From the IMG/VR virus record IMGVR_UViG_3300037137_003071: a DNA stretch of 64,000 nucleotides. One strand, 5' to 3'. Below the pieces are notes generated by a model. The model was given only the letters and a program-made list of their open reading frames with translations. It had not been told where the DNA came from and searched no databases. This DNA comes from an uncultured virus (IMG/VR IMGVR_UViG_3300037137_003071). Its lineage: Duplodnaviria > Heunggongvirae > Uroviricota > Caudoviricetes. Below are positions 48,956-64,000 of the stretch, in pieces. Each line of letters opens with the position of its first letter. The stretch's first letter is position 1. A program made the position numbers and the translations under genes.

Positions 48956-48963
48956 CGATCGAT

Positions 48964-49189: not shown

Positions 49190-49201
49190 CTCACCCGTTA
49201 C

Positions 49202-49459: not shown

Positions 49460-49493
49460 CGACTGCTGGTTCGGGACTGGTAGAATTGTCCCG

Positions 49494-49841: not shown

Positions 49842-49892
49842 AGCGCTCGGTTCGGGACCGAGAGACTGGTGGTTCAAATCCACTCACCCCGA
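49818..49892 (+). tRNA. tRNA-Pro(CGG)
   Basis: Canonical cloverleaf. Confidence 0.92.
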
Positions 49893-49902
49893 CGAAATTC
49901 AT

Positions 49903-50015
49903 GCCGCGCGCGTGTGAGAGCGCTGTTCGTTCGTGGGCTGCCCATCCGTGGAGCAATCCAGGAGGTGCACCTCTGTATTCGACGGGCAACGTGGGTGCGA
50001 TCCCACGGCGCGGCA
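49903..50015 (+). ncRNA. tRNA-like RNA family 2, copy B
   Basis: GCCGCGC/GCGCGGC-A, GGA-GCAA-TCC and GGAGGTGCACCTCT hairpins. Confidence 0.65.
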
Positions 50016-50027
50016 CCTTTTCAACAT

Positions 50028-50100
50028 GGGGAACAGTTCACCTGGGGGTGATGGCGCTCCTACAAAGCGCTCGCGGTCGGTCCGATTCCGACGTTCCCTA
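50028..50100 (+). tRNA. tRNA-Val(UAC), C33
   Basis: Cloverleaf with atypical D arm and T-loop TCCGATT. Confidence 0.7.
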
Positions 50101-50106
50101 CGACAC

Positions 50107-50178
50107 GGGGCCGTAGCTCAACGGTAGAGCACTTGGTTGATAACCGAGCGACGAGAGGTTCGACCCCTCCCGGCCCTA
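50107..50178 (+). tRNA. tRNA-Ile(GAU)
   Basis: Cloverleaf. Confidence 0.88.
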
Positions 50179-50184
50179 CGAGAT

Positions 50185-50255
50185 GATGCCGTAGCACAAC
50201 GAAGTGCGGTCGCTTTATAAGCGAAGGGTTGGTGGTTCGAGTCCACCCGGCATCA
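50185..50255 (+). tRNA. tRNA-Ile(UAU)
   Basis: Cloverleaf, loop TT-TAT-AA, A73. Confidence 0.8.
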
Positions 50256-50262
50256 CGATCAT

Positions 50263-50339
50263 GGTGCGCGTAGCCATCTGGTGATGGCGCTGGATTGTGG
50301 CTCCAGCTCAGGCGGGTTCGATCCCCGTCGTACACCCCA
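50263..50339 (+). tRNA. tRNA-His(GUG)
   Basis: G-1:C73, encoded CCA. Confidence 0.9.
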
Positions 50340-50342
50340 GCT

Positions 50343-50414
50343 CGAGCAGTGGCGAAGTGGCATCGCGCCGGTTCGGGGAACCGGAGATCGCAGGTTCGAT
50401 CCCTGTCTGCTCGA
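50343..50414 (+). tRNA. tRNA-Pro(GGG), C33
   Basis: Cloverleaf. Confidence 0.88.
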
Positions 50415-50484
50415 CGAAAGGAGGTCCGGCTGTCAGATCCGCGCCGGACAAGCGTCATAGGATCGAACAAGGAGAACGAACGCC

Positions 50485-51018
50485 ATGGAGTCGACACATA
50501 GAACCCTGGTCCTGTCGCAGAGCTACGAGCCGGTGAACATCGTCTCGTGGAAGCAGGCCATCACGCTCCTCTTCCTCGGCAAGGCCGAAGTGATCGAGGA
50601 GTACGACCGCAACATCAAGACGACCTCGCTCGTCATCAGGATCCCCGCGGTCGTGCGTCTGCTCTCGGCGTTCCGTCGGCACAAGAAGCCGGTGAAGTTC
50701 TCCCGCATCAACATCTACGGCCGCGACAAGTACACCTGCCAGTATTGCGGCACGAAGAAGTCGATCGGCGATCTGACGTACGACCACGTCGTGCCGCGCG
50801 CGCAGAACGGCAAGACGACATGGACGAACATCGCGACGTGCTGCGAGGACTGCAACCGCAAGAAGGCGAACCGCACGCCCGCGCAGGCCGGGATGAAGCT
50901 GCTCAAGGCGCCGGTGCAGCCAACTGCGTCGCCGGTGCTCGTAGTGACCGTGAGCCGCGAGTCGGTTCCCGATGCGTGGCGGGACTACCTGTACTGGACG
51001 TCCGAGCTGGAGGAGTGA
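50485..51018 (+). CDS. HNH endonuclease (McrA-like family)
   Basis: LVL..SYEP, RD.YTCQYCG, DHVVPR..G..TWTN..TCC..CN.KK. Confidence 0.9.
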   Translation: MESTHRTLVLSQSYEPVNIVSWKQAITLLFLGKAEVIEEYDRNIKTTSLVIRIPAVVRLLSAFRRHKKPVKFSRINIYGRDKYTCQYCGTKKSIGDLTYDHVVPRAQNGKTTWTNIATCCEDCNRKKANRTPAQAGMKLLKAPVQPTASPVLVVTVSRESVPDAWRDYLYWTSELEE

Positions 51019-51132
51019 TCGTGCGGCTCCTGCGAAAGATCGTCGCGCTGATCCGGTTCGAGGTCGGGATGTGGAAGGCGCGGTTCTGGTGAACGAAGAC
51101 TGATCGCGGGCGCGCGGCAACGCGCTCGCTTT

Positions 51133-51205
51133 GCCACGTAAGGCTACTGGTGTGGCCGGGTGATTGTCGATCACTTGCGGACGGGTCCGATTCCCGTACG
51201 TGGCG
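51133..51205 (+). tRNA. tRNA-Asp(GUC)
   Basis: Cloverleaf, G73. Confidence 0.82.
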
Positions 51206-51210
51206 CTTCT

Positions 51211-51282
51211 GGGTACGTGGCTCAACGGGAGAGCGCTCGGTTCGCATCCGAGAGGTTGAGGGTTCGATTCCCTTCGTATCCA
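51211..51282 (+). tRNA. tRNA-Ala(CGC)
   Basis: G3-U70, cloverleaf. Confidence 0.9.
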
Positions 51283-51288
51283 CGACAT

Positions 51289-51360
51289 GGGTCCATGGTT
51301 CAACGGGAGAGCGCTCGCATGGCATGCGAGAGGTTGAGGGTTCGATTCCCTCTGGATCCA
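51289..51360 (+). tRNA. tRNA-Ala(GGC)
   Basis: G3-U70, cloverleaf. Confidence 0.9.
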
Positions 51361-51370
51361 CGAGCTGGTG

Positions 51371-51625
51371 TCAGTGTCCCTGGCACGGCCCGGCGCAGAC
51401 CTCGCAGAAACCCTCGTCGAGGGTGTCCTCCGGTGCACTGCCGGCCGGATAGACCACTTCCTCTTCGAGGACGTCGCTGGCCGCATCGGCCTCGCGCACC
51501 CCGGTGTCCCCGCAGTGTGGGCAGAACAAGTCGGCTAGCGATCGCCGCCAGCCCTCGGGGAGCTGATCGAGGACGGCGGTCTCTTGAACGTTGCCGCATC
51601 GCGAGCACACGACGAACGTGGCCAT
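51371..51625 (-). CDS. Small acidic Zn-finger protein
   Basis: CSRCG...LPEGW...FCPHC. Confidence 0.5.
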   Translation of the reverse strand: MATFVVCSRCGNVQETAVLDQLPEGWRRSLADLFCPHCGDTGVREADAASDVLEEEVVYPAGSAPEDTLDEGFCEVCAGPCQGH

Positions 51626-51672
51626 GCATCAAGGCTACGTGAACGCGGGCGGCACCGACAGTTTTTGGCTCT

Positions 51673-51745
51673 GGGCAGGCATGTTCCAAGGAGGCGAGCT
51701 GGATTTGCAATCCGGTTGCGGCGGGTCCGATTCCCGTCCTGTCCA
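51673..51745 (+). tRNA. tRNA-Ala(UGC)
   Basis: G3-U70, atypical D arm. Confidence 0.75.
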
Positions 51746-51758
51746 CGATCGATGTAAC

Positions 51759-51832
51759 GCCGCCAAGGTGCCCGCGGTTCGGCACGCTCGCCTGGTATGC
51801 GAGAGGGCTCGGTTCAATTCCGAGTGGCGGCT
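51759..51832 (+). tRNA. tRNA-Thr(GGU)
   Basis: Cloverleaf. Confidence 0.82.
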
Positions 51833-51847
51833 CGAAGGCTTCGACGA

Positions 51848-51918
51848 TCAGGGGTCGTCTAACGGTAGGACGCTGGCCTTTGGAACCAGCTATGAAGGTT
51901 CGACTCCTTCTCCCTGAA
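51848..51918 (+). tRNA. tRNA-Gln(UUG)
   Basis: Cloverleaf. Confidence 0.88.
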
Positions 51919-51923
51919 CGCAT

Positions 51924-51994
51924 GCATGGGTCGCCAAGAGGCTAGGCACTGCTCTGCAAAAGCAGCAACGCGGGTTCAAATCCCGTCCCATGCT
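51924..51994 (+). tRNA. tRNA-Cys(GCA)
   Basis: Cloverleaf, U73. Confidence 0.88.
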
Positions 51995-52000
51995 CGACTC

Positions 52001-52075
52001 GCTCCTGACGCCTCATAGGAAGGGGCCTCCGTTTTCTAAACGGATCTGTTGGGGGTTCGAGTCCCCCCAGGAGCA
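52001..52075 (+). tRNA. tRNA-Arg(UCU)
   Basis: Cloverleaf. Confidence 0.85.
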
Positions 52076-52097
52076 CGACTGGACGTAGACTTCTCTC

Positions 52098-52460
52098 GTG
52101 TCCTTCATCCTTCCACAGCACGACGAGAAAACAGGACGTCCGATCCTGCCGAAGGCAGAGCTCGTCGACGGCGCGTACTACGTCGGCCGGTGCAGGAACG
52201 CGACGATCGCGCGCTGGAGCGCGACGCGGAACGCCTTCTTCCACTGGAGGCAAAAGTTCGATCGGATCTTCGTCGAGGAGATCCAGCATCCGGTCGACGA
52301 GGAGCACTACGACGTGTTCCGCGTCGTGCGCGTGCTCGCCGATCCGAAGTTTGAGATCCCGTTCGACACCAAGGCCACTTTCGGTGGTCGCGTCGAAGAT
52401 CTCAGCGAGCACGACCACGAGCTGTGGCGTGCTCCAGCAAGTCTGGGTCCCGTAGCCTAG
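52098..52460 (+). CDS. Hypothetical phage-type protein
   Basis: G.YY.G.CRNA..ARW motif; stop lies in the next tRNA. Confidence 0.6.
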   Translation: MSFILPQHDEKTGRPILPKAELVDGAYYVGRCRNATIARWSATRNAFFHWRQKFDRIFVEEIQHPVDEEHYDVFRVVRVLADPKFEIPFDTKATFGGRVEDLSEHDHELWRAPASLGPVA

Positions 52461-52519
52461 TGGATCAAGGCACTCGTTTCCTAAACGGGTCGACGCAGGT
52501 TCGAGCCCTGCCGGGATCA
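52446..52519 (+). tRNA. tRNA-Arg(CCU)
   Basis: Canonical cloverleaf. Confidence 0.9.
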
Positions 52520-52563
52520 CTTCATCATCATCATCGTCATCATCATCGTCGTCGACTACGCAC

Positions 52564-52631
52564 GCCTCCGTACGTGGACGTGACCCGAGTTTCCGAAGCT
52601 CGGTGAGCTGGTTCGAGTCCAGCCGGAGGCA
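52564..52631 (+). tRNA. tRNA-Arg(CCG), truncated D arm
   Basis: Acceptor, anticodon and T arms intact. Confidence 0.7.
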
Positions 52632-52637
52632 CTTCAC

Positions 52638-52709
52638 GCTCTCGTCGTCTAACGGTCAGGACCGTGGCCTTTCAAGCCGCGTGTACGGGTTCGATTCCCG
52701 TCGAGAGTA
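52638..52709 (+). tRNA. tRNA-Glu(UUC)
   Basis: Cloverleaf. Confidence 0.9.
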
Positions 52710-52713
52710 CGAT

Positions 52714-52893
52714 CTACGCGCGCTTCAGCTTCTTAGCCGCGTGCAGCGCGACGCTCAACATCCACGAGCTGAGGCCGAGACCCGTGCTCTTCGCGGTCGC
52801 GGCCAGCACGCGCTTCTGCGCTTCCGTGACGCGGATGAGGATCCCTTTGTCCTTGCGTCCAGTCTTGCGTTGCGTTGTTTTTTTCGCTGCCAT
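52714..52893 (-). CDS. Ribbon-helix-helix regulator (59 aa, absent from the ORF track)
   Basis: MAAKK...KDKGILIRVTEAQKRVLAATAKSTGLGLSSWML; divergent from the TROVE gene. Confidence 0.7.
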   Translation of the reverse strand: MAAKKTTQRKTGRKDKGILIRVTEAQKRVLAATAKSTGLGLSSWMLSVALHAAKKLKRA

Positions 52894-53026
52894 GTCGTGA
52901 TAGCGCTTGTATAGCGTCTCGCGAACGGCGCTGTCAATCGAGCACGGTGTTGGAGGCGATCACGGGATTGACTCCGCTTGCGAATGGCTATACAAACGCT
53001 AGCGTTGAATGGCAGGAGGATTCGCG

Positions 53027-54928
53027 ATGACGACAGCAGCAGCAGAGAAGTTGGGGCCGGCGGAGAAGATCCTCCAGACGCTCCTGAACCACACGGACCA
53101 CATGGTTCACAACCGGCCCGGCATGGTGACGCCGGATGCTCGGCACACGATCGGCGTGCGCTGGGTGCCCGTCACGCACAAGGAGGAGAACGGCCAGAAG
53201 GTCGTCTACGAGCTGACGAAGGCCGGTAAGAAGACGAACAAGATCCGCAGGGGCGTGATGCGCGCCGACAACAAGATCGAGGAGAACGGCAAGGTCGTCG
53301 GAGAGTACCGTGCGCCCGGCATCTACCCCGAGGTCGCCGCGTGGATGTATCGCCAGGTCGCCGAGGTCTGGAAGATGGACAACGAGTTCGCGGCTCGTTG
53401 GGCTTCGCACGCGTTCGGTCAGGAGCACCGCGATCTAAAGGTCGTGCTCGCGGCGTTCATGCTCGTACAAACCCGCAAGGGTGATCCCGTGCTCGACGGT
53501 GGCAAGGTCGCGTTCTACGACGACGACTTCCGCGACATCGGCGAGGCGATGATGCTCATCCATCGTCGAGACGGCAAGGATCTGAACCCGAAGCTCCTGC
53601 TTCGCGTTCACGACCTCTTGAAGATGCCTGGCGTTGCGGCCATCAACCGCGAGCTGGGCTTCGGCAACTCCGCCCGGCGTCCGTTCCTTGGGCGCTGGTC
53701 GAAGGCGGTCGAGAAGTGGCTCCAGTTCCGCGAGGAGAACCCCAAGATGCTCGACGGTCTCATCAAGGCTGGCTTCAAGAGCACCGTGAAGGATCTCGCG
53801 CGGGCGGTCGGCTACAAGCCCGAGACCCCGAAGTTCTTCGAGGCTCTTGGCTGGGCTCAGGACCAGGCCAAGGACGGTCGGCGCTCGATGCTCATCGGCG
53901 TCGAGATGGCCAAGGGCGAGACCTGGGACGAGCTGACCGAGGCACAGGTCTGCGAGAAGATCGTCGCCGAGAAGCCGGACTGGAAGCGCATCGTCGGTCT
54001 TCTGCCGAAGAAGCTCGGTGTCACGCGCGCCATCATGAGTGCTGCCGTCGAGTCAGGCTCTTTGTCCAACAAGGATCTCATCATCCTCACGCCCACGCTC
54101 GAGGAGCTGGGACTCCTGGAGGTCAAGGAGGTCAAGGCGAAGTGGGATCGGGCTTTGAAGAAGGCCGAGGACGACATGCGTGCGGCGAACATCGCTCGCA
54201 ACGTGAAGTCCAAGGACGTCCAGGAGCAGCTCGTCGCTGCGGCTGACACCGCTCTCCAGAAGGCCATCGAGCAGGTGACGAAGAATCTTCGGATCTACGT
54301 CATCATCGACATCTCGGGCTCGATGGGAAACTCGATCGTGAAGGCGAAGCAGCTCCTGGCGAAGTTTCTCCAGGGCTTCCCGCCGGACCGTACGCACGTC
54401 GCCGTGTTCAACACGGCGGGGCGCGTGGTCGAGATCAAGCACGCGTCGGCCGCTGGCGTCGAGAACGCCTTCAAGGGCATCTCGGCGGACGGTGGAACGG
54501 CTCACGGTGCGGGCGTGCTCGCGCTGGAGAAGTTCAAGCCGAAGGACGACGAGGACTCGCTGTTCATCTTCATCGGTGACGGCGGTGAGAAGAAGACGTT
54601 CGACGCGTACGTGACCCAGTCGGGTCTGCGTCCGATGGCGTTCGGATTCCTCAAGCTGCCGGGCGAGAACTTCGGCTGCATCGAGACCACCGCGGCGGCT
54701 CTGGGCATCCCGTGCTTCCCGATCCTGGAGAACACGTTCGAGGACGTCTACGCGATTCCGCGGACCATCCGCGCCCTCGTGGCGGCGACCCCGGTCGGTG
54801 TGGTTGCACGGGTGGCAGCAACGCCGCGCGTGACTCTCGTCGACACGATCCTCAAGACCGATCTGCTCAAGAAGCCTGCTTGGGCATTCTCGGCCCGAGC
54901 TTCCGCTCCGGCGGCTGCAACGGCGTAA
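53027..54928 (+). CDS. Ro60/Rsr-like TROVE-vWA protein
   Basis: AGGAGGA RBS; helical region with AVEKWL...KDLARAVGYKP; vWA MIDAS DISGSM, GGT, IGDG. Confidence 0.75.
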   Translation: MTTAAAEKLGPAEKILQTLLNHTDHMVHNRPGMVTPDARHTIGVRWVPVTHKEENGQKVVYELTKAGKKTNKIRRGVMRADNKIEENGKVVGEYRAPGIYPEVAAWMYRQVAEVWKMDNEFAARWASHAFGQEHRDLKVVLAAFMLVQTRKGDPVLDGGKVAFYDDDFRDIGEAMMLIHRRDGKDLNPKLLLRVHDLLKMPGVAAINRELGFGNSARRPFLGRWSKAVEKWLQFREENPKMLDGLIKAGFKSTVKDLARAVGYKPETPKFFEALGWAQDQAKDGRRSMLIGVEMAKGETWDELTEAQVCEKIVAEKPDWKRIVGLLPKKLGVTRAIMSAAVESGSLSNKDLIILTPTLEELGLLEVKEVKAKWDRALKKAEDDMRAANIARNVKSKDVQEQLVAAADTALQKAIEQVTKNLRIYVIIDISGSMGNSIVKAKQLLAKFLQGFPPDRTHVAVFNTAGRVVEIKHASAAGVENAFKGISADGGTAHGAGVLALEKFKPKDDEDSLFIFIGDGGEKKTFDAYVTQSGLRPMAFGFLKLPGENFGCIETTAAALGIPCFPILENTFEDVYAIPRTIRALVAATPVGVVARVAATPRVTLVDTILKTDLLKKPAWAFSARASAPAAATA

Positions 54929-55025
54929 ACGACTCGATCGCGGAGGCACGCGGTCCATGGTGGTTGGTTCATGACTACTCGCGTGGTCCCGGCGATACGG
55001 GACTTTCGTTTCAAGGAGGGCACTG

Positions 55026-55958
55026 GTGGGCTGGCGCGATCTACTTCAGACGGGCGACGAGAAGGTGACCCTTCCGTGGCTCGGCGGCGGGACGCTGTAC
55101 TCCGCCGCGCAGCGCTGGTCCATCGAGGGTCGCCACCCGAAGGAGTACGGGTGGTTCACGTTCAAGATCGTCAACCGGGGAGCTCGCCTTGCGGGCCCGG
55201 CTGACGCTCAACCGGAGCTACTCCAGCACTCCGTGCGCGGCTACCTGGTCGGGGATCGCATCGTCGCAGACGACGTTCGTGTCGATCCAGATCCGAAGCG
55301 CATTGTGGAGTTCTCCGAGAAGGTGTTCTTGCTCGACGACGGCATCGACCGCTTCGCACGCGTGCGCGCGGGGCGGATCAACAAGGAAGGTCCCCTGGTC
55401 TACCAGGGGCTGGAGATGCCGCTCGGGCAGGAGGACCAGGTACTCGAAGCGTTCCTCGATCAGAAGACGTCGGTGGTCAACCTCAAGGACGTAGCTCCTG
55501 CGCTCGACGCCGCCTTCCGCATGGAGAGCTGGCAGCGCGCGGAGGCCGAGCGCCGACGTGTCGAGCTGGAGCGCATCCGTCGGGAAGAGGAGGAGAAGCG
55601 TCAGAAGGAGGAGCGTCGCAAGGAGCTGGTGAAGAAGCTCGGTGACGGTGAAGGCCGGCGCGAGATGGCGCTCCACGACTTCGACGCCGCCGCGCGCGCA
55701 GCGCTCGCGGTCGGCGGCGCGGTGTTCCTCGATGCGAAGAAGCTGCGGCACAACGAGTGGGCGGTGAAGTACCGGCTCGATCGCCAGCGCTTCGAGTGCG
55801 TCTGCAACGAGCACCTCAGCATCATCGACGCCGGCATCTGTCTCATCGACCACGACACCAACGAGAAGGGGGACACCTTCTTCACTCTCGAATCACTCCC
55901 AGCCGTCGTGCAGCAAGCGCAACGCGAACGACGGCTGGTCATCTTCCGCCACGTGTGA
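55026..55958 (+). CDS. Hypothetical protein with coiled coil and candidate E2-like C-terminal domain
   Basis: AGGAGG RBS; IIDAGICL...FTLESL. Confidence 0.7.
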   Translation: MGWRDLLQTGDEKVTLPWLGGGTLYSAAQRWSIEGRHPKEYGWFTFKIVNRGARLAGPADAQPELLQHSVRGYLVGDRIVADDVRVDPDPKRIVEFSEKVFLLDDGIDRFARVRAGRINKEGPLVYQGLEMPLGQEDQVLEAFLDQKTSVVNLKDVAPALDAAFRMESWQRAEAERRRVELERIRREEEEKRQKEERRKELVKKLGDGEGRREMALHDFDAAARAALAVGGAVFLDAKKLRHNEWAVKYRLDRQRFECVCNEHLSIIDAGICLIDHDTNEKGDTFFTLESLPAVVQQAQRERRLVIFRHV

Positions 55959-55963
55959 TCACC

Positions 55964-56533
55964 ATGAAGCCCATCTACGTACCTGACTACGCCGACGCCT
56001 TGCCGGCAGACCTTGCGATCGTCCCCTGGGGAACGTTCACCGAGGCCCGTCAGGAGTGCTTCATGGCGCTCACGACGACGAACTACACCTACGGCTCCGG
56101 TCGCGGCGTGAGGACGTACACCTCGATTCCGTTCCTGCCCTGGGTCGAAGCGATCCGCCAGCACTTGAACATGGCGCCGTTGATCCACGATGGGCTCGGG
56201 CTCGCGGTCAAGGAGCGCCAGTACAACGTCTGCTTCCTCAACCGCTACGAGGATGCCGGCCAGCACCTCGGGTGGCACGCGGACGATTCGCCGGGCATGA
56301 ACCACGAGCACCCCATCGCGGTCGTGTCCTTCGGGCAGGCGAGAGAGATCTGGTGGAAGCCTCAGGCCGATACCGGATCGATCCCGGACGGTCAGCGACA
56401 GCTCCTCGGACACGGCTCGCTGTTCGTGATGCCGACGCTCTTCCAGCGCGGCTACTTCCACAAGATCCCGAAGGGTGACCGAAAGATGGAGCCCCGCGTG
56501 AGCTTGACGTTCAGGCACTACATCCCGGAATAG
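55964..56533 (+). CDS. AlkB-family 2OG-Fe(II) dioxygenase
   Basis: N.CFLN.Y, GWHADD, VSFG..R, H.IPK, RVSLTFR. Confidence 0.88.
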   Translation: MKPIYVPDYADALPADLAIVPWGTFTEARQECFMALTTTNYTYGSGRGVRTYTSIPFLPWVEAIRQHLNMAPLIHDGLGLAVKERQYNVCFLNRYEDAGQHLGWHADDSPGMNHEHPIAVVSFGQAREIWWKPQADTGSIPDGQRQLLGHGSLFVMPTLFQRGYFHKIPKGDRKMEPRVSLTFRHYIPE

Positions 56534-56542
56534 GACAAGGTC

Positions 56543-57124
56543 ATGAAGTTCTCGGACATCAAGCTCATGGATATCGGCAACACGATCCAGATGGTTGGCG
56601 TGATCTACACCGACTCGAATGGCAAGGGGTTCTACTTCCCGTTCCCGTCCGCCAACGATGAGGGCAAGGATCCGATCCACGTCGAGATGACTCTCGACAA
56701 CTGGAAGGCACTGCTCCGTCAAGCGGATCACACAGAGACCGAGGTGCTCGGTCAGCACGAAGACGGCGAGCTGTACAAGGCGATCGCGCGCAAGTCGCAA
56801 CGCCAGGTCGATACGCAGGTCCAGTGGAACGTCTACCGCCGGGACAACTTCATGTGCCGCTACTGCGGCACCGAGAAGCTGCCGCTCACGGTCGATCACC
56901 TCGTGCGCTGGGAGGACGGCGGGCCAACGATCGAGGAGAACCTCGTGGCTGCCTGCCGAAAGTGCAACAAGGTGCGCGGTGACACTGCGTACGCGGCGTG
57001 GCTTCGGCATCCCTACTACGTCGAGGTCTCGCAGAAGGTCTCGTACGCATACCAAGAGCTGAACCGGCGCATCGCCGACACGCTCGTCAACATCCCCCGC
57101 ACGCCTGTCGTGAAGGACCGCTAG
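56543..57124 (+). CDS. HNH endonuclease with N-terminal extension
   Basis: RD.F.CRYCG, TVDH, NLVAACRKCN. Confidence 0.85.
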   Translation: MKFSDIKLMDIGNTIQMVGVIYTDSNGKGFYFPFPSANDEGKDPIHVEMTLDNWKALLRQADHTETEVLGQHEDGELYKAIARKSQRQVDTQVQWNVYRRDNFMCRYCGTEKLPLTVDHLVRWEDGGPTIEENLVAACRKCNKVRGDTAYAAWLRHPYYVEVSQKVSYAYQELNRRIADTLVNIPRTPVVKDR

Positions 57125-57126
57125 CC

Positions 57127-57522
57127 ATGATCGAAGCCGGAGTTGTTGTCGACAAGAGCGGGAACTCGATGTTCTGGCATCTTCCCGAGGGGCGCTCGGC
57201 GGGGAGCCTTCCCGACAGCCGGACCTTGTGGCAGGTTCTCTGGGACGCGTTCAAGGATGACACGCTGCTCGGGTTCGCACACAGTCACCCGGGCTCCGGC
57301 GTTCCCGGTCCCTCGTACTCGGACGTCACTACGTTCGCGGCCGTCGAAGCCGCGCTCGGCAAGCGGCTCGACTGGTGGATCACCAGCTCGGACCACGTGG
57401 TCCTGATCCGCTGGAGCGGACCCGACAAGATTTCATACCGCGCCACGATCGTTACGGAGGCACCGTCGTGGGTTGCGGAACTGCGACGCCTCTCTCAGCA
57501 CGAACAAGGACAAGGACAATGA
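57127..57522 (+). CDS. JAB/MPN+ metallopeptidase
   Basis: N-terminal E plus HSHP-x6-PS-x2-D JAMM motif. Confidence 0.85.
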   Translation: MIEAGVVVDKSGNSMFWHLPEGRSAGSLPDSRTLWQVLWDAFKDDTLLGFAHSHPGSGVPGPSYSDVTTFAAVEAALGKRLDWWITSSDHVVLIRWSGPDKISYRATIVTEAPSWVAELRRLSQHEQGQGQ

Positions 57523-57860
57523 ACGACATCAAGGACACCGAGGCGCGCGTCAACATCACGTACGGCGGCAAGAACGGCGATCTGCCGGACCCTGTCATGT
57601 TCCAGTCGACCGATGGCGACATCAAGATGTGGGTCACCGAGGCCGTCCGCACCGGCGGCGTTCCGGGGCTCGATGCGACGCCGAACGCCGACTTCGCGGA
57701 CTTCGTCGTCGATCGCTTCGCGGCGAGCGAAGTGCGCCCGTACCATTTGATCGCGATCCGACCGAAGACGCCGTTCGGGTTCGCTTCGTGCAATCACTGC
57801 AAGCAGTGCCTCGCGAAGATCGTCGGGCTGTCGTGCTGCGGGTGCGGAAGCAAGAAGTAG
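57519..57860 (+). CDS. Candidate ubiquitin-like (beta-grasp) protein with Cys-rich C-terminal extension
   Basis: 87-aa beta-beta-alpha-beta-beta pattern ending RPKTPFG, between JAB and E1. Confidence 0.6.
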   Translation: MNDIKDTEARVNITYGGKNGDLPDPVMFQSTDGDIKMWVTEAVRTGGVPGLDATPNADFADFVVDRFAASEVRPYHLIAIRPKTPFGFASCNHCKQCLAKIVGLSCCGCGSKK

Positions 57861-57861
57861 C

Positions 57862-58284
57862 GTGCGACGGATCGCGTTCGACATCGGGGGCGTGCTCTCG
57901 AAGTACCCGGAGAAGTTCCGGCCCTTCATCGTGAAGCTTCTCCACGGCGGCATCGAGGTGTTCGTCATCACCGACATGCACGACGTGGAGAAGATCTACG
58001 AGATGCTGGTCATGAACGACTTCGGGATGATTCCGAAGTCGAACGTCTACTCTGCTGACTACAAGGAGCATGGCGACGGCTGCAAGGCCGAGCTGCTGCG
58101 CGAGCTGGAGATCGATCTGTTCTTTGATGATCACCTACCGTACATGATGCTCCCCGGCGACACGATCCAGGCGCTCGTGATGCCGACCGCCTTCAAGCCG
58201 TACTGGTCCCCCGCGTGGAAAGTTCCTGAGGGCGGCGACGCGGAATTCGGACGGCGGTTCTACAAGAAAGGATGGTTGCTATGA
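57862..58284 (+). CDS. Capless HAD-family phosphatase-like protein
   Basis: IAFDIGGVL, VIT, K, FFDD. Confidence 0.7.
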   Translation: MRRIAFDIGGVLSKYPEKFRPFIVKLLHGGIEVFVITDMHDVEKIYEMLVMNDFGMIPKSNVYSADYKEHGDGCKAELLRELEIDLFFDDHLPYMMLPGDTIQALVMPTAFKPYWSPAWKVPEGGDAEFGRRFYKKGWLL

Positions 58285-58850
58285 TCCTCATCGTCGGCGT
58301 TGGAGCGCTGGGCAGTCACCTGGTCCAGTTCATCCGCAACGAGAAGGTGGACATCAAGGTCATCGACTTCGATCGCGTCGAACAAAAAAATGTGATGTCC
58401 CAGTTCCACGGCAAGCCGGGCGTTGGCAAGAACAAGGTCGACGCGTTGAAGCAGACGATGGACTTCCTCTTCAAGAGGAACCTCCAGATCGTCAGCCACA
58501 AGCTCGTCGAGAACAACGTCGACGTTCTCATGAAGGGCGCGACACTCGTCATCGACTGCCTCGACAACGGCGCAGCTCGGAAGCTCGTGCAGGACTACGT
58601 GCGCAAGCACAACCTGCCGTGTCTCCATGGCGCGCTCGCGCCGGGCGGCGAGTTTGGCCGCGCGATCTGGGACGAGCTATTCGTGATCGACAGCGAGATC
58701 GGCGCGGGCTCGGCAACGTGCGAGGACGGCGAGTTCTTGCCGTTCATCGCGCTCACGGCGGCGTACCTGGCGCGATCGGTTCAGCTCTTCTTGAAGGACG
58801 GAAAGAAGATCGGCTTCTCGATCTCGCCTGTTGGCGTCGTTGCCATCTGA
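58281..58850 (+). CDS. Minimal E1/ThiF-family adenylyltransferase
   Basis: IVGVGALGS, IDFDRVE.KN, K, IDCLDN..AR, ATCE cysteine. Confidence 0.9.
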   Translation: MILIVGVGALGSHLVQFIRNEKVDIKVIDFDRVEQKNVMSQFHGKPGVGKNKVDALKQTMDFLFKRNLQIVSHKLVENNVDVLMKGATLVIDCLDNGAARKLVQDYVRKHNLPCLHGALAPGGEFGRAIWDELFVIDSEIGAGSATCEDGEFLPFIALTAAYLARSVQLFLKDGKKIGFSISPVGVVAI

Positions 58851-59043
58851 ACCGCTAGTGGCGGATCTTGGCACCGAAGACAATGTTGTAGCGGCCTGTC
58901 TACGCTGCAATCTCCTGCGTGGCGACATGCCCTATGAAGCGTGGCAGGTGCTGATACCAGCTGTGCGCGAAGTCGCGAAGGCCGGTTTGTTTGGAAGCTG
59001 GCGATCTTCACCGATCAACCGAAGAAGTACGCCAGCCGCGTAG
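58851..59043 (+). pseudogene. HNH endonuclease C-terminal remnant
   Basis: NVVAACLRCNLLRGD.PY..W resembles 56543..57124; no N-terminal half. Confidence 0.55.
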
Positions 59044-59082
59044 AGCACGATCTCGCTGGTCGGCACAATTACCAGCTAGTGT

Positions 59083-59111
59083 TTGACAACGGCCCCAGTA
59101 TCAACTAGGCT
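59083..59111 (+). promoter_or_regulatory. Sigma70-type promoter for the RNA cluster
   Basis: TTGACA-17 bp-TAGGCT, about 8 nt upstream of E3. Confidence 0.75.
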
Positions 59112-59118
59112 TTCACCC

Positions 59119-59262
59119 ACTCGGTCACCAACCGAAAGTCCTCACAAGCCCGGGTTCGACTCCCGACAGATTCCTGAAAAGGGATCTGATAGCCAAACGG
59201 TAAGGCACCTGTCTTGTAAACAGGCTGAAAAGCATCCAGGACTATCAACTCGGTGACCAAGT
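59119..59262 (+). ncRNA. Circularly permuted tRNA-chimeric RNA E3 (YrlA-like topology, UGU anticodon arm retained)
   Basis: Order: module 3' strand, T arm, loop-closed acceptor stem, D arm, anticodon arm, module 5' strand. Confidence 0.8.
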
Positions 59263-59266
59263 ATTT

Positions 59267-59394
59267 GGCGAACAAGGGACGTGGTGTCCCACTTTCCTCA
59301 TAAGAAAGCATCATCCGACAGGCTTGACTCGAACCCGCGAGGGTTCACTCCGATTCTGTCTACAAGCCGCGTGGTTCGACTCCACGGTTCGCCA
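59267..59394 (+). ncRNA. tRNA-chimeric RNA E4 (CAU anticodon, module in variable arm)
   Basis: GGCGAAC/GTTCGCC stem; CCGACAG..ACTC..CTGTCTACAAGC module. Confidence 0.82.
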
Positions 59395-59401
59395 CTGAGA
59401 C

Positions 59402-59517
59402 GCAGCCAATCTAGAGTGCTCACACGCATAGCTCAACGGTAGAGCATCGGCCTACGAAGCCGAAGGTTGGGACTTCAAAAATCCCTGCATTCAACCAAGC
59501 ACTCTTCACTCGGCTGC
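59402..59517 (+). ncRNA. tRNA-chimeric RNA E5 (Arg-ACG body with module replacing the acceptor stem)
   Basis: GCAGCC/GGCTGC and AGAGTGCT/AGCACTCT stems enclose D, anticodon and T-like arms. Confidence 0.75.
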
Positions 59518-59581
59518 CCTCTAATTTTTACTCCGTGCCGGTCCTGAGCTGGCGCGTAGCTCAGCTGATACGCCGCGAGCC

Positions 59582-59806
59582 TCACATCCTGAACTTCGCT
59601 GGCACGTTCGCTTCGACCCAGTCGGCAACCGCCGCCTGTGCCGCGCGTTGGCGCGCGTGATGCGCTCCTGGGTCGAGGTCGCCGGTCTTGGCCTGCGGGT
59701 ACTTCTTCGCGACGACCCGCCAGAAGGCTTCCAGTGCGTCCTCGGTCACGGAGATCACGAGGGACGCGGCGATGTCACGATCGAGCTGTGCGGGCGTCTT
59801 GGCCAT
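59582..59806 (-). CDS. Small hypothetical protein
   Basis: AGGAGG RBS; MAKTPAQLDRDIA motif. Confidence 0.6.
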   Translation of the reverse strand: MAKTPAQLDRDIAASLVISVTEDALEAFWRVVAKKYPQAKTGDLDPGAHHARQRAAQAAVADWVEANVPAKFRM

Positions 59807-59827
59807 GCCCTCCTACCGCACCCCTCG

Positions 59828-60526
59828 TCACGTCGTTACTTTGGGCGCCGTCGAGAGCAGGTACGACGGGTAGCCACGCTTCTTGTAGTACGTGTCGAAG
59901 GCGCGATCCCGCTCTTCCTCGGTCATGCCTGACCGCAGGCCAACGTCGCTGGCAAGCTTGCGCGTCTCGGCCAAGCGGCGCTCGCCCGTCTTGATCGTCG
60001 GACGTACAAGCATGAGGTAGCCGACTCCCAGGACGGCAGTCGCGCCGATCGCGATCTTCCACCATGGCGTGCCGACGGATCGATCCTGCGCTGCGTCCAC
60101 GGTCCCGTGGATCACCACGCTCGGCGCCGCCGTCTCGAGCCCCCACGAGGCTCCCGCACTCATCTTGAGGTCGTTGTAGCGGGACGCCCAGCTCATCAGC
60201 ACGAGAGCGGGGCCGCGATCGGCGCTACTGATCTTTCCCGCGAGCAACTGTGCGAGCACCTGGTCGCGCGCGACGTTCCAGGCCCTGACGAAGGGCACCC
60301 AGTACGTGAGCACGAAGTGCGACTGATCGAGACCTTCGCCCGGTTTCTGGCCAGCCGCGCGCCAGTCGGTCTGGTACTTCGTCGCGTAGTCGTGATCCGC
60401 CTGCTGGATCGCCGCATCGAGCTCGTTGACGCGCTCGCGGAACACGTAGGCATAGCTGCGGTAGAAACCTTCCGCTTGAGGGAGCTTGCTGACGCCGTTG
60501 CTGCCGATGTATTCGCCGCGACCCAT
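59828..60526 (-). CDS. Membrane-anchored helical protein, possibly a distant member of the Trp-rich family
   Basis: W.PF..AW...W..RY pattern, WW plus TM helix. Confidence 0.6.
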   Translation of the reverse strand: MGRGEYIGSNGVSKLPQAEGFYRSYAYVFRERVNELDAAIQQADHDYATKYQTDWRAAGQKPGEGLDQSHFVLTYWVPFVRAWNVARDQVLAQLLAGKISSADRGPALVLMSWASRYNDLKMSAGASWGLETAAPSVVIHGTVDAAQDRSVGTPWWKIAIGATAVLGVGYLMLVRPTIKTGERRLAETRKLASDVGLRSGMTEEERDRAFDTYYKKRGYPSYLLSTAPKVTT

Positions 60527-60779
60527 CTGAGACCTCCGGGATCTCGATTCTAGAGCATAGCGCTGCGATCCGTGCGAGTGTCCGAGCATGCACTGCCCCG
60601 GGTGCGAAGCAGTCATCCCGATCCCGGACATCGGCTCGCGCACGCCGCCGGGCACCGAGGTCGCCTGTACCTGTGGCGACGCGATCGGCGTCCTCTACAC
60701 CAAGCACGGACCCATCCTCAGCTGGTGGCGTCCCAGCCGGCCGATCGTCGTCCGTAACGGGATGAGTGACGAGTCCTGA

Positions 60780-61388
60780 ATGCCTTCCGCGCGGGCACCG
60801 AGAGCGTGGCTTCGACCGGCGATCCTCGGCGGCGGCATCTTCGCGGTGTTCGCGTGGCTCGGCCGACGTTCGCGCCCAGCGCTTCCACCCGTGAGGACTT
60901 CGGGTGTAACGCCGACCTCGATCAGTGCCCAGGGGACGCGCTTCATCGCGCAGTTCGAGGGATTTGATCCCAAGCTCGTCAACGATGACGCGGGGCACTG
61001 CACGATCGGCTTCGGGCACCTCATCCACCTGGGCCCGTGCAACGGCAGCGAGCCGGCCGAGTTCAAACGCGGCATCACCGAAGAGCGCGGGCTCGAGCTG
61101 CTGGCGCAAGAGACGACCGCCGCGGCCGAGGGCGTGTCACGCATCGTGACGGTTCCGCTCACGCAGACTCAATTCGATGCTCTCAGCAGCTTTACGTTCA
61201 ACGTCGGTCAGACGAGCTTCGCGACTTCGACGCTGCTGAGGCTGCTCAACCGGGGCGACTACGCCAGCGTCCCAGGGCAGCTTGGCCGGTTCGTCTTCGC
61301 GGGGGGCCGGAAGCTGTCGGGCCTGGTCGCACGCCGCGCGGCCGAGGGGCGACTCTTCTCGACGGGCGGCTACGGCCTCGGCATCTGA
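60780..61388 (+). CDS. GH24 phage-type lysozyme with N-terminal membrane anchor
   Basis: FEG...D..G..TIGFGH, QFDAL.SFTFNVG, GL..RR..E. Confidence 0.92.
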   Translation: MPSARAPRAWLRPAILGGGIFAVFAWLGRRSRPALPPVRTSGVTPTSISAQGTRFIAQFEGFDPKLVNDDAGHCTIGFGHLIHLGPCNGSEPAEFKRGITEERGLELLAQETTAAAEGVSRIVTVPLTQTQFDALSSFTFNVGQTSFATSTLLRLLNRGDYASVPGQLGRFVFAGGRKLSGLVARRAAEGRLFSTGGYGLGI

Positions 61389-61889
61389 TCTGATCAGATA
61401 TGCTCGTTCGCATGGACGGTCACGCCCTTCTCGGAGACATCGCGCTGTACTCCAGCGTCTGTGGTGACGGAGGTCCTTGGGGGTACCGTCGCCGCGGCAA
61501 GTCGCTGCCGGAGAAGTACCTTCCAGGACGCTTCCTCGCAGGCATGCGCTCCGACGCTCGCGCAGATGTCGTACGCGCGGTCAACGCGACGAAGACGTCG
61601 CCGGCACCGTGGTTCCTTCGCTACGTCGTCGACGAGGAGGAGCCGCGCGTCGCCGTGCCGCCGCTGCCGGTCGATCGCCGCTGGAGCTGCCGTGGGCGTT
61701 GGTCGACGCCGCCGGCCTCGGTCGCGCGGCGCCGCAAGATCCCGAGCTAGCTCCTGGGTATCCTGTCACCCGTGTCTTGGGCAGCACACGCGCCGCCTCG
61801 TGAACACTGGGTGCGAGAGCACCCACGGTCTACTGACGGGCACTTGCAGCGGCCTTACGCCGGCACGCGGGCTGCTCTAGCTGTTCGTC

Positions 61890-62621
61890 ATGAGCAAGAC
61901 CAGCAAGCGTAGCAAGCGGTCCCGCGGTACCACCGATCGTTCGGCCACCACCGACGTTGTCACCCAGCTCGAATGCGCCGTCCGCAATCCCCACGCGGCG
62001 CTGATCGGCGCCGTGATTGGCGGGCTCGTCCCGTGGTTCGGTCGCACGCTCGCGCACGAGGAGATTCCGTCGACCTGGTCGGCCGGTTACCACGGGTTCG
62101 CGACGGTGATGATCGCGGTCGTCCTGGGCTGCGCATGCTTCTCCGCGATCTCCGTCTACAAGTTCGGCAAGGCAGCGTTCGGCGACTCGCGCAAGGCTCT
62201 TGGCTTTGTGCTCGCCCTGGAGGGCGTGATGCTGGTGTCCCATGGGGCCACGAGCAACGTGGCGCTCGGGGTTCTGATCTTGATCAACGCGGTCGCGAAC
62301 GGATCAGTGATCGCCCTTTCGCGCGACGCGACCAAGCGCCGTTGCGAGGCCGACGCACGCCGCGCCGCGACGCGGGCTCGCAGTCGGACCTCCGCGCGCG
62401 GCACGACTGCCGAGCAGCCCGCGCCGCAGCCCGCGCCGCAGCCCGCGGCTCCCACTCGTCAGGCCCCGGCCGTCGGTACGTCGGCGCGGCGGCAGGCTGC
62501 TCGCCCCGCGCGCCCCGCGAGCGCGCCTGGTCTGGTGATCACGGCGCCGTGGCGCCGCGCGACACTCGACGACGACGTGATCGATGCGGAGATCGTCTCC
62601 GAGCAGAAGTTCCTGGCGTAG
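61890..62621 (+). CDS. Multi-pass membrane protein
   Basis: Three to four hydrophobic segments. Confidence 0.6.
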   Translation: MSKTSKRSKRSRGTTDRSATTDVVTQLECAVRNPHAALIGAVIGGLVPWFGRTLAHEEIPSTWSAGYHGFATVMIAVVLGCACFSAISVYKFGKAAFGDSRKALGFVLALEGVMLVSHGATSNVALGVLILINAVANGSVIALSRDATKRRCEADARRAATRARSRTSARGTTAEQPAPQPAPQPAAPTRQAPAVGTSARRQAARPARPASAPGLVITAPWRRATLDDDVIDAEIVSEQKFLA

Positions 62622-63034
62622 CGCCACGGTGACGCTTGCCAGAAGCTCGGATCCGGCATACTCGCGGGCAGATGTCTCGAATGCCGCTCTTCTCGGTGGT
62701 GATCTACATCGCGACACGCCTCGCGCTCGATGGCCAGGTGGTGGACAAGAGCATGGTGGAGCTGTTCGGTCGAGCTGGACTGCATCTCGCCTCGCGTGAC
62801 ATCGCTGCGGACGATGGCGAGCACGTCGATGACTGAAGAGGCCGCCCGCACGCGCACACCCGAGCAGTGGGCGTACGGCGCGATCTTGGACTACTGGGAT
62901 CGTTGGAACGCCGCTCGTCGATCGGTGTGGCGCAAGCGTCCGCGTCGGGGTGGATCAGCAGCCCTCGCCTTCGCGCTCGCGGCAGCGACTTCGGTCGCTC
63001 CAGGCGTGCCGCAGATGCGGTACAACCGCGGTCG

Positions 63035-63379
63035 ATGAAGCTCGAAACGCATGAAGGGCTGATCGCGGGGCCGGTGACCGCGGACGTCATCGCGCGAACC
63101 GTCGCGCAGCTCACCGAGGTCGGCAAGGCGTACGTCATCCTGGACGACGACGTCGACGCCGAGACGTACGTGCAGGCCGCCGGCACAGTCGGTGAGGACT
63201 TCATCGTCGAGCGGCGCGACGGCTGCGCGGGCGAGCACTACCGGGGTGATCGTCGCGTGACGGCCGACGAGCTGGCCGCGATGCTCGTGGGTTGTCTGCA
63301 CGGAACGACGGACTGGAGCCACGTCATCTCGTGGCATCACGTGCGCGTCGACTTTGGTGCCGCGAATGCGAACGCCTAG
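63035..63379 (+). CDS. Hypothetical acidic protein
   Basis: YVIL...YVQAAG...VE.RDG...HY pattern. Confidence 0.5.
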   Translation: MKLETHEGLIAGPVTADVIARTVAQLTEVGKAYVILDDDVDAETYVQAAGTVGEDFIVERRDGCAGEHYRGDRRVTADELAAMLVGCLHGTTDWSHVISWHHVRVDFGAANANA

Positions 63380-63603
63380 TTGCTCTCTCGCTCGGCCGCA
63401 GTGGTGATGCGGCAAGAGCAGCCCTTGCCGGGGCGCTCCGCGGTAGCGCGCGCCTACTGCGCCGCCGCACGTCGGGCAGCTTGACGATCGCAGCCGCTTG
63501 CGCTACACGTGGATCTCCTCAATGCGCACGTTTCGCTTACCCGCTCGACTTCGCTCGCTACGCTTGCCGGCTTGAGGCAGGCGTAGCTCGCAGCTTGTCT
63601 TGA

Positions 63604-63675
63604 GCCGGCGTAGCCCAATGGAGAGGCAGCGCGCTTAAACCGCGTCCAGTGCGTGCTCGAACCACGCCGCCGGCA
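63604..63675 (+). tRNA. tRNA-Leu(UAA), short variable loop
   Basis: Cloverleaf, A73, atypical T loop. Confidence 0.75.
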
Positions 63676-63678
63676 GAC

Positions 63679-63754
63679 GTCGCGGTAGCCCAACCTTGGT
63701 AGAGGCGGTGCGTTGAGCGCGCACTGGTTGCGGGTTCAAGTCCCGCTCGCGACA
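63679..63754 (+). tRNA. tRNA-Leu(GAG), short variable loop
   Basis: Cloverleaf, A73. Confidence 0.85.
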
Positions 63755-63818
63755 CGAGGAGGAGGACACGTTTTTCGACCGAGTCCCGAAAAAGATCACC
63801 GATCCGTTTACGTTTTTC

Positions 63819-63894
63819 GCCGACGTAGCCCAATTTTGGTAGCGGCAATGGTTTCAGACACCATTCAGTCTCGGTTCGAGTCCGAGCGTCGGCA
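63819..63894 (+). tRNA. tRNA-Leu(CAG), short variable loop
   Basis: Cloverleaf, A73. Confidence 0.85.
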
Positions 63895-63905
63895 CGTTAT
63901 TTTTG

Positions 63906-63978
63906 GTCGTCGTGGCCCAACGGCAGAGGCGCCCGATTCAAGATCGGGAAGTTGCGAGTTCGACTCTCGCCGACGACA
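63906..63978 (+). tRNA. tRNA-Leu(CAA), short variable loop
   Basis: Cloverleaf, A73. Confidence 0.85.
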
Positions 63979-64000
63979 CCGAGTCCCGCGCGCTACGGAG

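Follow-up and report, generated by a model that had tools for sequence, protein, structure and literature searches.

Ubiquitin-like systems with a masked terminal glycine

To our knowledge, the bacterial tagging systems characterised to date that employ ubiquitin-like proteins (Ubls) act in host defence against phages (Bil, Bub, and CBASS Cap2/Cap3). We describe here a Ubl gene at positions 57519..57860 (+ strand) of a 64,000-nucleotide stretch of the uncultured Caudoviricetes record IMGVR_UViG_3300037137_003071 (IMG/VR), the whole stretch being referred to as the window. The gene lies beside genes for a JAMM peptidase and an E1, and seems to belong to a protein-tagging system that the virus encodes. 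A preliminary description, made from the nucleotide sequence, had proposed a candidate Ubl whose C-terminal Gly is masked by a six-cysteine tail. This interpretation proves largely right: family conservation, the modelled fold, the linkage to JAB and E1, and co-folding with JAB all support a precursor of a phage Ubl with a masked activating Gly. The module to which the gene belongs (Ubl, JAMM peptidase, E1, a vWA/MIDAS protein, and a protein of 310 amino acids (aa), p310) is real, undescribed, and widespread in giant phages, although the processing principle is already established. A conserved phage-encoded module of this kind, carried by hundreds of giant phages, would show the virus side using the same chemistry as its hosts' defences.

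In Bub systems, the JAB domain BubC (part of BubCD in type I) cuts the BubAB Ubl-E2 pre-protein immediately past a conserved Gly (PMC11601596). Like type I Bub, the phage locus combines a Gly masked by a C-terminal extension, an adjacent JAB (predicted here to cut after that Gly), and an E1 of the ThiF superfamily in the same operon (PMC11601596). The Bub extension, however, is the E2 itself, whereas the phage extension is variable and mostly a tiny tail (PMC11601596). The phage JAB is moreover not fused to E1, the Ubl and E1 are separate genes with vWA and p310 partners, the module is phage-encoded instead of residing in bacterial defence islands, and, unlike in Bub, no DUF6527 protease occurs among the phage neighbours scanned with Pfam.

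Release by JAB at a terminal Gly was predicted by Iyer et al. (2006) for the phage tail assembly protein TAPI and for ThiS/MoaD fusions (PMC1779556). The lambda/T1 TAPI-TAPK pair resembles our locus in comprising a phage Ubl, a conserved Gly followed by a further part, and a neighbouring JAB predicted to cut there; as described in that source, the pair has no E1 and is set among tail genes, whereas the present module is linked to E1, vWA, and p310 and to no tail gene (PMC1779556). The vWA-linked bacterial Ubl systems of Kaur et al. (2020) also differ, with their MoxR/FtsH ternary systems, RING E3, and Ubl-E2 fusion (PMC7159879). The accessible part of a 2021 comparative review of 224 jumbo phages mentions neither ThiF nor a phage Ubl system (PMC7824862), and we found no description of the module in the full-text literature, subscription-only journals lying outside that scope.

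A large Ubl family conserved up to a single glycine

The Ubl gene and its upstream neighbour comprise three features:

57519..57779, + strand: Ubl core, residues 1-87, ending in RPKTPFG
57780..57860, + strand: Cys6-His tail, residues 88-113, with the TAG stop
57127..57522, + strand: JAB/JAMM metallopeptidase of 131 aa with an invariant JAMM motif, the predicted processing enzyme

The Ubl ATG (57519-57521) overlaps the TGA of the JAB frame (57520-57522, caATGAac), the TAG stop occupies 57858-57860, and the open reading frame (ORF), which encodes 113 aa, is nested inside a longer GTG-started frame (57375..57860). Residues 81-87 read RPKTPFG, with the Gly87 codon ending at 57779, and residues 88-113 (FASCNHCKQCLAKIVGLSCCGCGSKK) form a tail of 26 aa with six Cys (91, 94, 97, 106, 107, and 109) and one His (93). 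On re-reading, the preliminary description had all of these details right, namely the coordinates, RPKTPFG, Gly87, the 26-aa six-cysteine tail, and the overlap with the JAB stop.

The core belongs to a large, previously unnamed family. A word-indexed search returned 811 homologues at E <= 1e-3, and an exhaustive search of 1.84 billion representatives yielded 238 clusters (50% identity), of which 143 reach E <= 1e-10, numbers well beyond coincidence. Gly87 is the sole invariant column in the alignment of these 143 sequences, in which A9, N12, T14, E41, G46, G50, R66, R81, P82, K83, and F86 are each at least 90% conserved. Hidden Markov models of named Ubl families (Pfam ThiS/MoaD, Prok_Ub, Multiubiquitin, and others) gave no match to the phage Ubl.

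What follows the Gly was surveyed in 270 homologues (the best 120 of the 811 matches, 62-198 aa long, together with the top 150 of the 238 clusters), a sample for which proportions are indicative only. A motif of the RPKTPFG type could be located in 253 of them. The preliminary description had suggested checking whether homologues end at PFG, and they do: 15 of the 253 stop exactly there and 126 carry 1-3 extra residues, the others having 4-14 (19 homologues), 15-39 (43), or at least 40 (50, with a maximum of 170). Sequence similarity among homologues stops at Gly87, and the extensions beyond it are mutually unrelated. P0025 and P0026 have cores 84-87% identical to the phage Ubl, yet tails of 3 and 1 residues without the six-Cys tail. 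In the Virus Rctr197k orthologue, RPKTPFG is identical, but the 61 aa behind it are an unrelated tail.

Longer tails include several independent Cys-rich or zinc-ribbon-like pieces as well as hydrophobic segments. A zinc ribbon follows the Gly in P0193, and the tail of P0215 is a winged-helix domain (sub-threshold matches to HTH_Crp_2, at 8e-5, and to eight further HTH-type families), while 23 of the 30 long-tailed proteins scanned have no Pfam match whatsoever. On a core tree with 243 tips, 72 changes of tail class are counted, compared with a mean of 88 and a minimum of 79 after shuffling; this tree, built on about 90 residues, is poorly resolved and informs on the lability of tails, not on the number of gains. 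Judging from these sequence comparisons, post-Gly tails appear to be gained and lost quickly. Apparent tblastn similarity beyond the Gly in 13 loci passes through stop codons and continues in low-complexity sequence or the following gene, and represents neither hidden tails nor read-through. Extensions also occur at the other end: P0209 has a long N-terminal extension, with its Ubl at residues 126-204, and terminates at the Gly, and P0162 and P0182 are similar.

Modelled fold and contact with the JAMM peptidase

An AlphaFold2 model of the Ubl, computed on the 143-row alignment, has a mean predicted local distance difference test (pLDDT) of 87.1 and a predicted template modelling score (pTM) of 0.70, with block means of 95-98 across residues 11-80. 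Its elements follow the order strand 8-15, strand 18-21, helix 32-45, strand 62-67, and strand 76-82, that is, the beta-beta-alpha-beta-beta order of the beta-grasp. Comparison with 48,161 representative chains by VIA-align gave Z scores of 3.6-4.8 over residues 5-87, with rows drawn nearly all from the ubiquitin superfold (PI3K ABD/RBD, NLE1-UBL, PB1, Fubi, ISG15, parkin Ubl, MoaD, and FAT10). Realignment of the 1000 best Foldseek chains put Cdc24 PB1 on top (Z 5.3), followed by the same ubiquitin-superfold classes, and the 50 best PDB neighbours are nearly all of this superfold; further named structural neighbours are SUMO1, ubiquitin, and protein G B1. Against BFVD, Foldseek retrieved the Rctr197k orthologue alone (1.1e-12).

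For the adjacent JAB gene, we retain the ATG at 57127 as start, rather than the GTG at 56998 that opens the longest frame. The JAMM Glu, H-S/T-H, Ser, and Asp are invariant in 32 of 32 JAB sequences, which matches the zinc-site pattern of JAMM/MPN+ metallopeptidases (Glu ... H-x-H ... Ser-x-x-Asp), with a spacer of 8 residues where we take 7 to be usual. Matches to known families are faint: Pfam Prok-JAB reaches 17 bits (E 0.0056), below its cut-off of 25, and the best matches of the JAB profile in the PDB are to Rpn11 (E 0.18).

Co-folding of JAB with the Ubl gave interface scores (interaction prediction score from aligned errors, ipSAE) of 0.86, 0.86, and 0.87, versus 0.00 for the best control. 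That mark is attained by 116 of 157 solved complexes and by 2 of 215 mismatched pairs, a rough calibration since custom alignments were supplied. The runs share at least 71% of their contacts, with a partner pLDDT of at least 80. Ubl residues 81-89, a stretch that spans the Gly87-Phe88 bond, make confident contacts with JAB residues 4, 53, 55-56, 64, and 66-67 (the invariant JAMM residues, co-fold numbering). The modelled geometry, with the JAMM site on the Gly87 bond, supports a scheme in which JAB would cleave the precursor after Gly87.

The six-cysteine tail

The tail of the window's Ubl is found in 27 of the 270 homologues surveyed, in each case with exactly six Cys plus the His. These residues are arranged as C-x-H-C-x2-C-(8-9)-C-C-x-C (P0031 has one variant spacing), and the remaining positions vary. 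As the Cys6-His set is kept in all 27 when other tail positions are not, purifying selection acts on a ligand set, and the tail is probably a small metal-binding module, for which Zn, Fe-S, or alternatively disulfides between the Cys are conceivable. As it is present in these 27 homologues only, it is best viewed as a lineage-specific accessory, outside the core mechanism. The preliminary description had gone further in suggesting a metal- or redox-sensing cap; no result backs a sensing role, and the tail is confined to one sub-lineage.

A conserved Cys-rich tail directly behind a conserved cleavage-type motif could also be the core peptide of a ribosomally synthesised and post-translationally modified peptide (RiPP), with residues 1-87 as leader, the ThiF-like enzyme as modifier, and JAB as the releasing protease; ThiF-like adenylating domains are indeed found in some peptide-maturation pathways. 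Yet the conserved part of the family is the would-be leader and not the core, and 141 of the 253 homologues have 0-3 residues after the Gly while JAB, E1, vWA, and p310 are retained. Since, in addition, the six-Cys tail has such a narrow distribution and the conserved neighbours include no gene for a cyclodehydratase, a lanthionine synthetase, or a radical-SAM enzyme, we regard a RiPP-like precursor as very improbable.

A parallel, by analogy only, is offered by eukaryotic ubiquitin-fusion genes, in which ubiquitin is joined to small zinc-binding ribosomal proteins. There, the Ubl is translated as one chain with a small, basic, Cys-rich polypeptide, which cleavage behind the terminal Gly sets free, much as predicted for the phage gene, but the phage tail is only 26 aa long and belongs to one sub-lineage.

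A conserved module in giant phages

Gene order around the Ubl was established in 57 sources (the window, 55 IMG/VR loci, and Virus Rctr197k), by BLAST of the window proteins against the ORFs of the 56 other loci and by clustering of all ORFs; the loci had been retrieved using an alignment restricted to closer relatives. The order is fixed: vWA/MIDAS protein (51 of 57 sources), p310 (56), JAB (57), Ubl (57), and E1 (53), the misses being mostly loci that end at a contig edge. Within 6 kb on either side of the Ubl, no other coding-strand gene is conserved among the 57 sources, the remaining large clusters being antisense shadow ORFs. In the window, the three other members of the module are:

53009..54928, + strand: vWA/MIDAS protein of 639 aa, first gene of the module (VWA_CoxE 1.6e-6 and VWA_2 1.2e-5 at residues 424-531)
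55026..55958, + strand: p310, candidate E2/RWD-like carrier (from its model and the invariant Cys258 and Cys272)
58272..58850, + strand: minimal ThiF/MoeB-type E1 of 192 aa (Pfam ThiF 1.9e-19)

This linkage bears on the possibility that the Ubl is a non-activated virion-assembly chaperone, comparable to lambda tail assembly protein I, with JAB separating its two halves and E1 serving elsewhere. The sole PHROG match of JAB, phrog_5556 (E 2.5e-4), is annotated as 'tail protein', collagen-like fibre genes lie elsewhere in the window, and TAPI of lambda/T1 consists of a Ubl, a conserved C-terminal Gly, and a further domain, flanked by TAPK, which combines JAB with NlpC/P60 (PMC1779556). On the other hand, E1 is linked in 53 of the 57 sources (with misses mostly due to loci ending early), no tail or baseplate gene is conserved within the 6 kb on either side, and no NlpC/P60 domain is found. 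Most homologues, with 0-3 residues past the Gly, would furthermore have no second domain to deliver. An assembly factor is therefore improbable in our view.

The E1 is a single ThiF adenylation domain, without a rhodanese domain and without CxxC pairs. All 35 sequences examined (35 of 35) share its GxGxxG motif, R22, D32, K55, D95, D98, and Cys150. Among solved structures, those nearest in sequence are two ThiF-type entries, Uba4, and MoeB (E 2e-7 to 2e-6). Scores against specific families stay far below their cut-offs, with 52.8 bits for NCBIfam SAMP-E1 (cut-off 450) and 30.9 bits for TIGR03736 PRTRC_ThiF (cut-off 144.75), which does not place it in PRTRC, and PADLOC matched generic E1-E2 models on E1 alone.

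Compared with described E1s, the phage enzyme differs from that of Bub, which, by the published account, has no catalytic Cys and uses oxyester chemistry (PMC11601596), by its invariant Cys150. Bil (BilABCD) is similar in having separate Ubl, JAB, and E1 and in its phage-related biology, and the phage module has a candidate E2 (PMC11601596). However, the Bil E1 has an IAD-AAD-CYS architecture as opposed to a single 192-aa adenylation domain, and Bil defends the host by tagging a structural protein of the phage, whereas the present module is carried by the phage (PMC11601596). No Bil-type or UBC E2 was recognised in the phage module either.

Systems with a MoeB-type E1 that work independently of an E2 are archaeal SAMP/UbaA, Thermus TtuB/TtuC, and eukaryotic Urm1/Uba4. 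They share with the phage module a small MoeB/ThiF-like E1, a crossover-loop Cys, and the lack of a canonical E2, and in the SAMP system JAMM peptidases both process and deconjugate. By contrast, their Ubls have a Gly-Gly end and also serve as carriers of sulfur. Their E1s contain Zn-binding CxxC pairs, often together with a rhodanese domain, and the phage E1 shows neither feature.

The MIDAS motif of the vWA protein (D434-x-S436-x-S438) is invariant in 24 homologues. A PDB profile search with the protein's alignment matched the vWA domain alone, and no family could be assigned to the N-terminal ~420 aa. ESM Atlas leads (0.92-0.93, 160-175 shared features) had pointed to a TROVE/Ro60 identity, which we did not adopt, Pfam TROVE matching 0 of 24 members. 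Among the structural neighbours of the Ubl, NLE1-UBL is bound to the MIDAS domain of MDN1 (8ql1, Z 4.7-4.8); by analogy, the phage MIDAS protein might read the Ubl.

The p310 model (pLDDT 87.5) comprises two OB-like barrels, a 50-residue helix, and a C-terminal domain made of helices, a four-strand meander, a loop with the invariant Cys272 in G-I-C-L, and a final helix. Residues 10-137 align with the inter-domain of Mpa, the mycobacterial proteasome ATPase (Z 5.1-5.5 over 103-109 residues), a weak match that is curious in a Ubl context. The C-terminal domain (residues 213-302) weakly matches FANCL 105-197 (Z 4.2) and Ctf19-Mcm21 (Z 4.0), regions which we take to be RWD (E2-like) domains, and G-I-C-L presumably resembles the active-site loop of UBC enzymes. 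On the basis of this model, the domain is a candidate for a diverged E2/RWD-like Cys domain. Sequence searches were silent: p310 retrieved nothing in a PDB profile search, its residues 205-310 had no usable ESM Atlas match, and a word-index search of the C-region among shorter proteins returned only 16 unannotated orthologue fragments.

Distribution and probable host

The window carries 34 tRNA genes in 17.6 kb (46379-63980), including two tRNA-Arg(acg) and four tRNA-Leu at the window end, and the Ubl module lies inside this field. It also encodes a phage lysozyme, HNH and LAGLIDADG nucleases, collagen-repeat proteins, and glycosyltransferases. Close Ubl homologues are found on contigs of 324-443 kb, and relatives on 55 IMG/VR viral contigs of up to 619 kb. 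Megablast of positions 56500-59100 against 50,697 phage records gave no match, and tblastn against phage records found Virus Rctr197k, a 197-kb partial genome, as the sole relative. A search of prokaryotes (one genome for each of 185,579 species) yielded only six contigs of metagenome-assembled genomes (MAGs), labelled Myxococcota, Sorangium, Deltaproteobacteria, Gemmatimonadota, and Rickettsiales; with these six contigs only, this search provides no evidence for a cellular version of the module. The tRNA field, the phage genes, the relatives on large viral contigs, and the Myxococcota-type MAG labels together indicate that the window derives from a giant phage, plausibly one of Myxococcota.

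Conjugation or sulfur transfer

We consider it fairly probable that the phage Ubl precursor is processed by the JAMM peptidase, activated by the E1, and passed to protein targets. The 113-aa precursor would be translated in coupling with the upstream JAB gene. The JAMM peptidase would then bind the beta-grasp core and cut after Gly87, freeing the 26-aa tail; we propose that dozens of unrelated post-Gly extensions are tolerated because they are cut off in this way. Until processing, the six-Cys tail may cap the Gly, or it may be released as a small basic peptide. From the chemistry of its family, the 192-aa E1 is expected to adenylate the Gly87 carboxylate and to take the Ubl onto Cys150. Transfer to protein targets might involve Cys272 of p310, and the vWA/MIDAS protein could perhaps act as partner, receptor, or substrate.

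An alternative diverges after adenylation. JAB would trim the precursor and E1 adenylate Gly87, but the resulting Ubl thiocarboxylate would donate sulfur (for phage tRNA thiolation, a cofactor, or a metabolite) without any conjugation, after the models of CysO/Mec+/MoeZ, QbsE/QbsD/QbsC, and TtuB/TtuC. The best named relatives of the E1 (ThiF, MoeB, MoeZ, Uba4, and UbaA) and the location of the module inside the field of 34 tRNA genes are in line with such a role, and trios of JAB, Ubl, and E1 are known in sulfur-assimilation neighbourhoods (PMC1779556). We searched five related phage genomes, 92-100% complete, for sulfur-transfer and E2 families. Rhodanese and the cysteine-desulfurase family Aminotran_5 were each found in 0 of 5, and the PP-loop family ATP_bind_3 in 0 of 5 above cut-off (it had one sub-threshold match of 21 bits), with controls positive in 13-14 of 14 genomes, which speaks against sulfur transfer, although host enzymes could supply these activities. 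UQ_con, Prok-E2_A, Prok-E2_B, and Prok-E2_D were likewise found in 0 of 5 genomes each; with no recognised E2 or E3 in the module either, this favours a sulfur carrier, but controls were silent for three of the four E2 families, so that the absence of E2s is weak evidence.

Other features of the module fit sulfur transfer poorly: its 192-aa E1 has no rhodanese domain, the vWA/MIDAS protein and p310 are unlike any sulfur-insertion enzyme, and the Ubl has a PFG single-Gly end instead of GG. More generally, the Gly-Gly end and the rhodanese/persulfide donor that, along with a sulfur-accepting synthase downstream, define ThiS/ThiF, MoaD/MoeB, CysO/MoeZ/Mec+, and TtuB/TtuC are not seen here, though the host might supply the partners. 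A sulfur carrier thus appears unlikely, if still worth keeping in view. Conjugation is favoured by the universal link to two partners (a MIDAS protein and an E2/RWD-like candidate that bears a Cys), by the invariant E1 Cys, and by the single-Gly terminus, and we judge it the probable fate of the Ubl, by a modest degree. By analogy, it could proceed via p310 or directly from E1. E1-direct conjugation is the route used in SAMP, TtuB, and Urm1 systems.

Several observations weigh against a Ubl that is processed and conjugated. The protein has 0 matches in Pfam (E <= 0.1), PHROGs, NCBIfam, and PADLOC, and a PDB profile search with its family alignment retrieved no Ubl. Foldseek found no PDB entry at E <= 0.001, its weak best rows (E 0.2-0.7) being protein L B1, ubiquitin-like proteins, NEDD8, SUMO, FAT10, and similar, and the best structural Z is 5.3 where, according to the tool's own warning, values below 8 may mean a shared arrangement only. 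Because the neighbours are of the right class but their scores are low, we hold the beta-grasp assignment with moderate strength: the structure prediction that the preliminary description had proposed as a check agrees with it in order and neighbours, at weak scores (Z 3.6-5.3, Foldseek E about 0.2). As JAMM-ubiquitin complexes are already solved, the co-fold may have passed through likeness to them and not by virtue of this pair. The Ubl terminus is a single Gly after Phe, and not Gly-Gly. AlphaFold2 block pLDDT falls from 74 (residues 81-90) to 68, 65, and 53 in the tail blocks, and metal binding by the tail is putative. Pfam recognises no E2, UBC, or RWD family in 39 p310 members, and the E2-like structural matches of the p310 C-terminal domain reach a Z of about 4 only. 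Cleavage, adenylation, and conjugates are predictions.

If conjugation takes place, phage tagging might contribute to taking over the host, to virion assembly, or to counter-defence. With only 192 aa, the E1 is unusually small and tractable, and the Ubl has a clean processing site at a single Gly. The recurrent unrelated tails past the Gly constitute a natural experiment on what a JAMM protease accepts, and hint at co-translated 'cargo' peptides. A bolder view, which we put forward tentatively and hold to be doubtful, is that a clade of giant phages (200-620 kb contigs, probable Myxococcota hosts) possesses its own ubiquitination-like pathway, with the Ubl gene as a fusion dock for captured modules. 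Under this view, E1, Ubl, JAMM peptidase, the E2/RWD-like p310, and a MIDAS receptor would tag host or virion proteins during infection. Unrelated modules (Cys6-His peptides, zinc ribbons, winged-helix domains, and transmembrane segments) would be co-expressed and released, as a viral counterpart of ubiquitin-fusion genes.

Insertions and neighbouring genes in the window

In the window, the module is split by non-conserved inserts, p310 and JAB being separated by an ORF for a 2-oxoglutarate-Fe(II) (2OG-Fe(II)) oxygenase and by an HNH gene. The oxygenase ORF (55757-56533) is AlkB-like (2OG-FeII_Oxy_2, E 1.3e-16), located between p310 and the HNH gene, and none of the other 56 loci contains a homologue of it. 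The HNH gene between p310 and JAB has relatives in 18 of the 57 sources, where HNH nucleases lie at differing positions, so that the module is a target for mobile insertions. Homing-type nucleases in the window comprise two HNH genes (50485-51018 and 56543-57124), a LAGLIDADG gene (32178-33482), and a 70-aa HNH remnant just past E1 (58831-59043).

Between Ubl and E1, a 140-aa ORF (57862-58284) starts one base past the Ubl stop, and its N-terminal FDIGGVL is, we presume, reminiscent of HAD phosphatases. We considered it as a possible missing E2 and ruled this out: homologues are absent from the 56 other loci, and the ORF belongs to no family of Pfam, PHROGs, NCBIfam, or PADLOC. Within the tRNA field, a 120-aa ORF (52098-52460) matches phrog_18490, of unknown function, at 2.8e-23.

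Farther upstream, collagen-repeat ORFs (21023-22150, 22163-22846, and 28600-29577) lie beside 2OG-Fe(II) oxygenases (27239-27940 and 27971-28546) and glycosyltransferases (18910-19866 and 19838-20983). The same region (9007-29577) encodes a 1208-aa protein combining GT25 and an FkbM-methyltransferase (23612-27238) and an epimerase/dehydratase fusion (9007-10905), and may represent a phage kit for hydroxylated, glycosylated collagen-like fibres.

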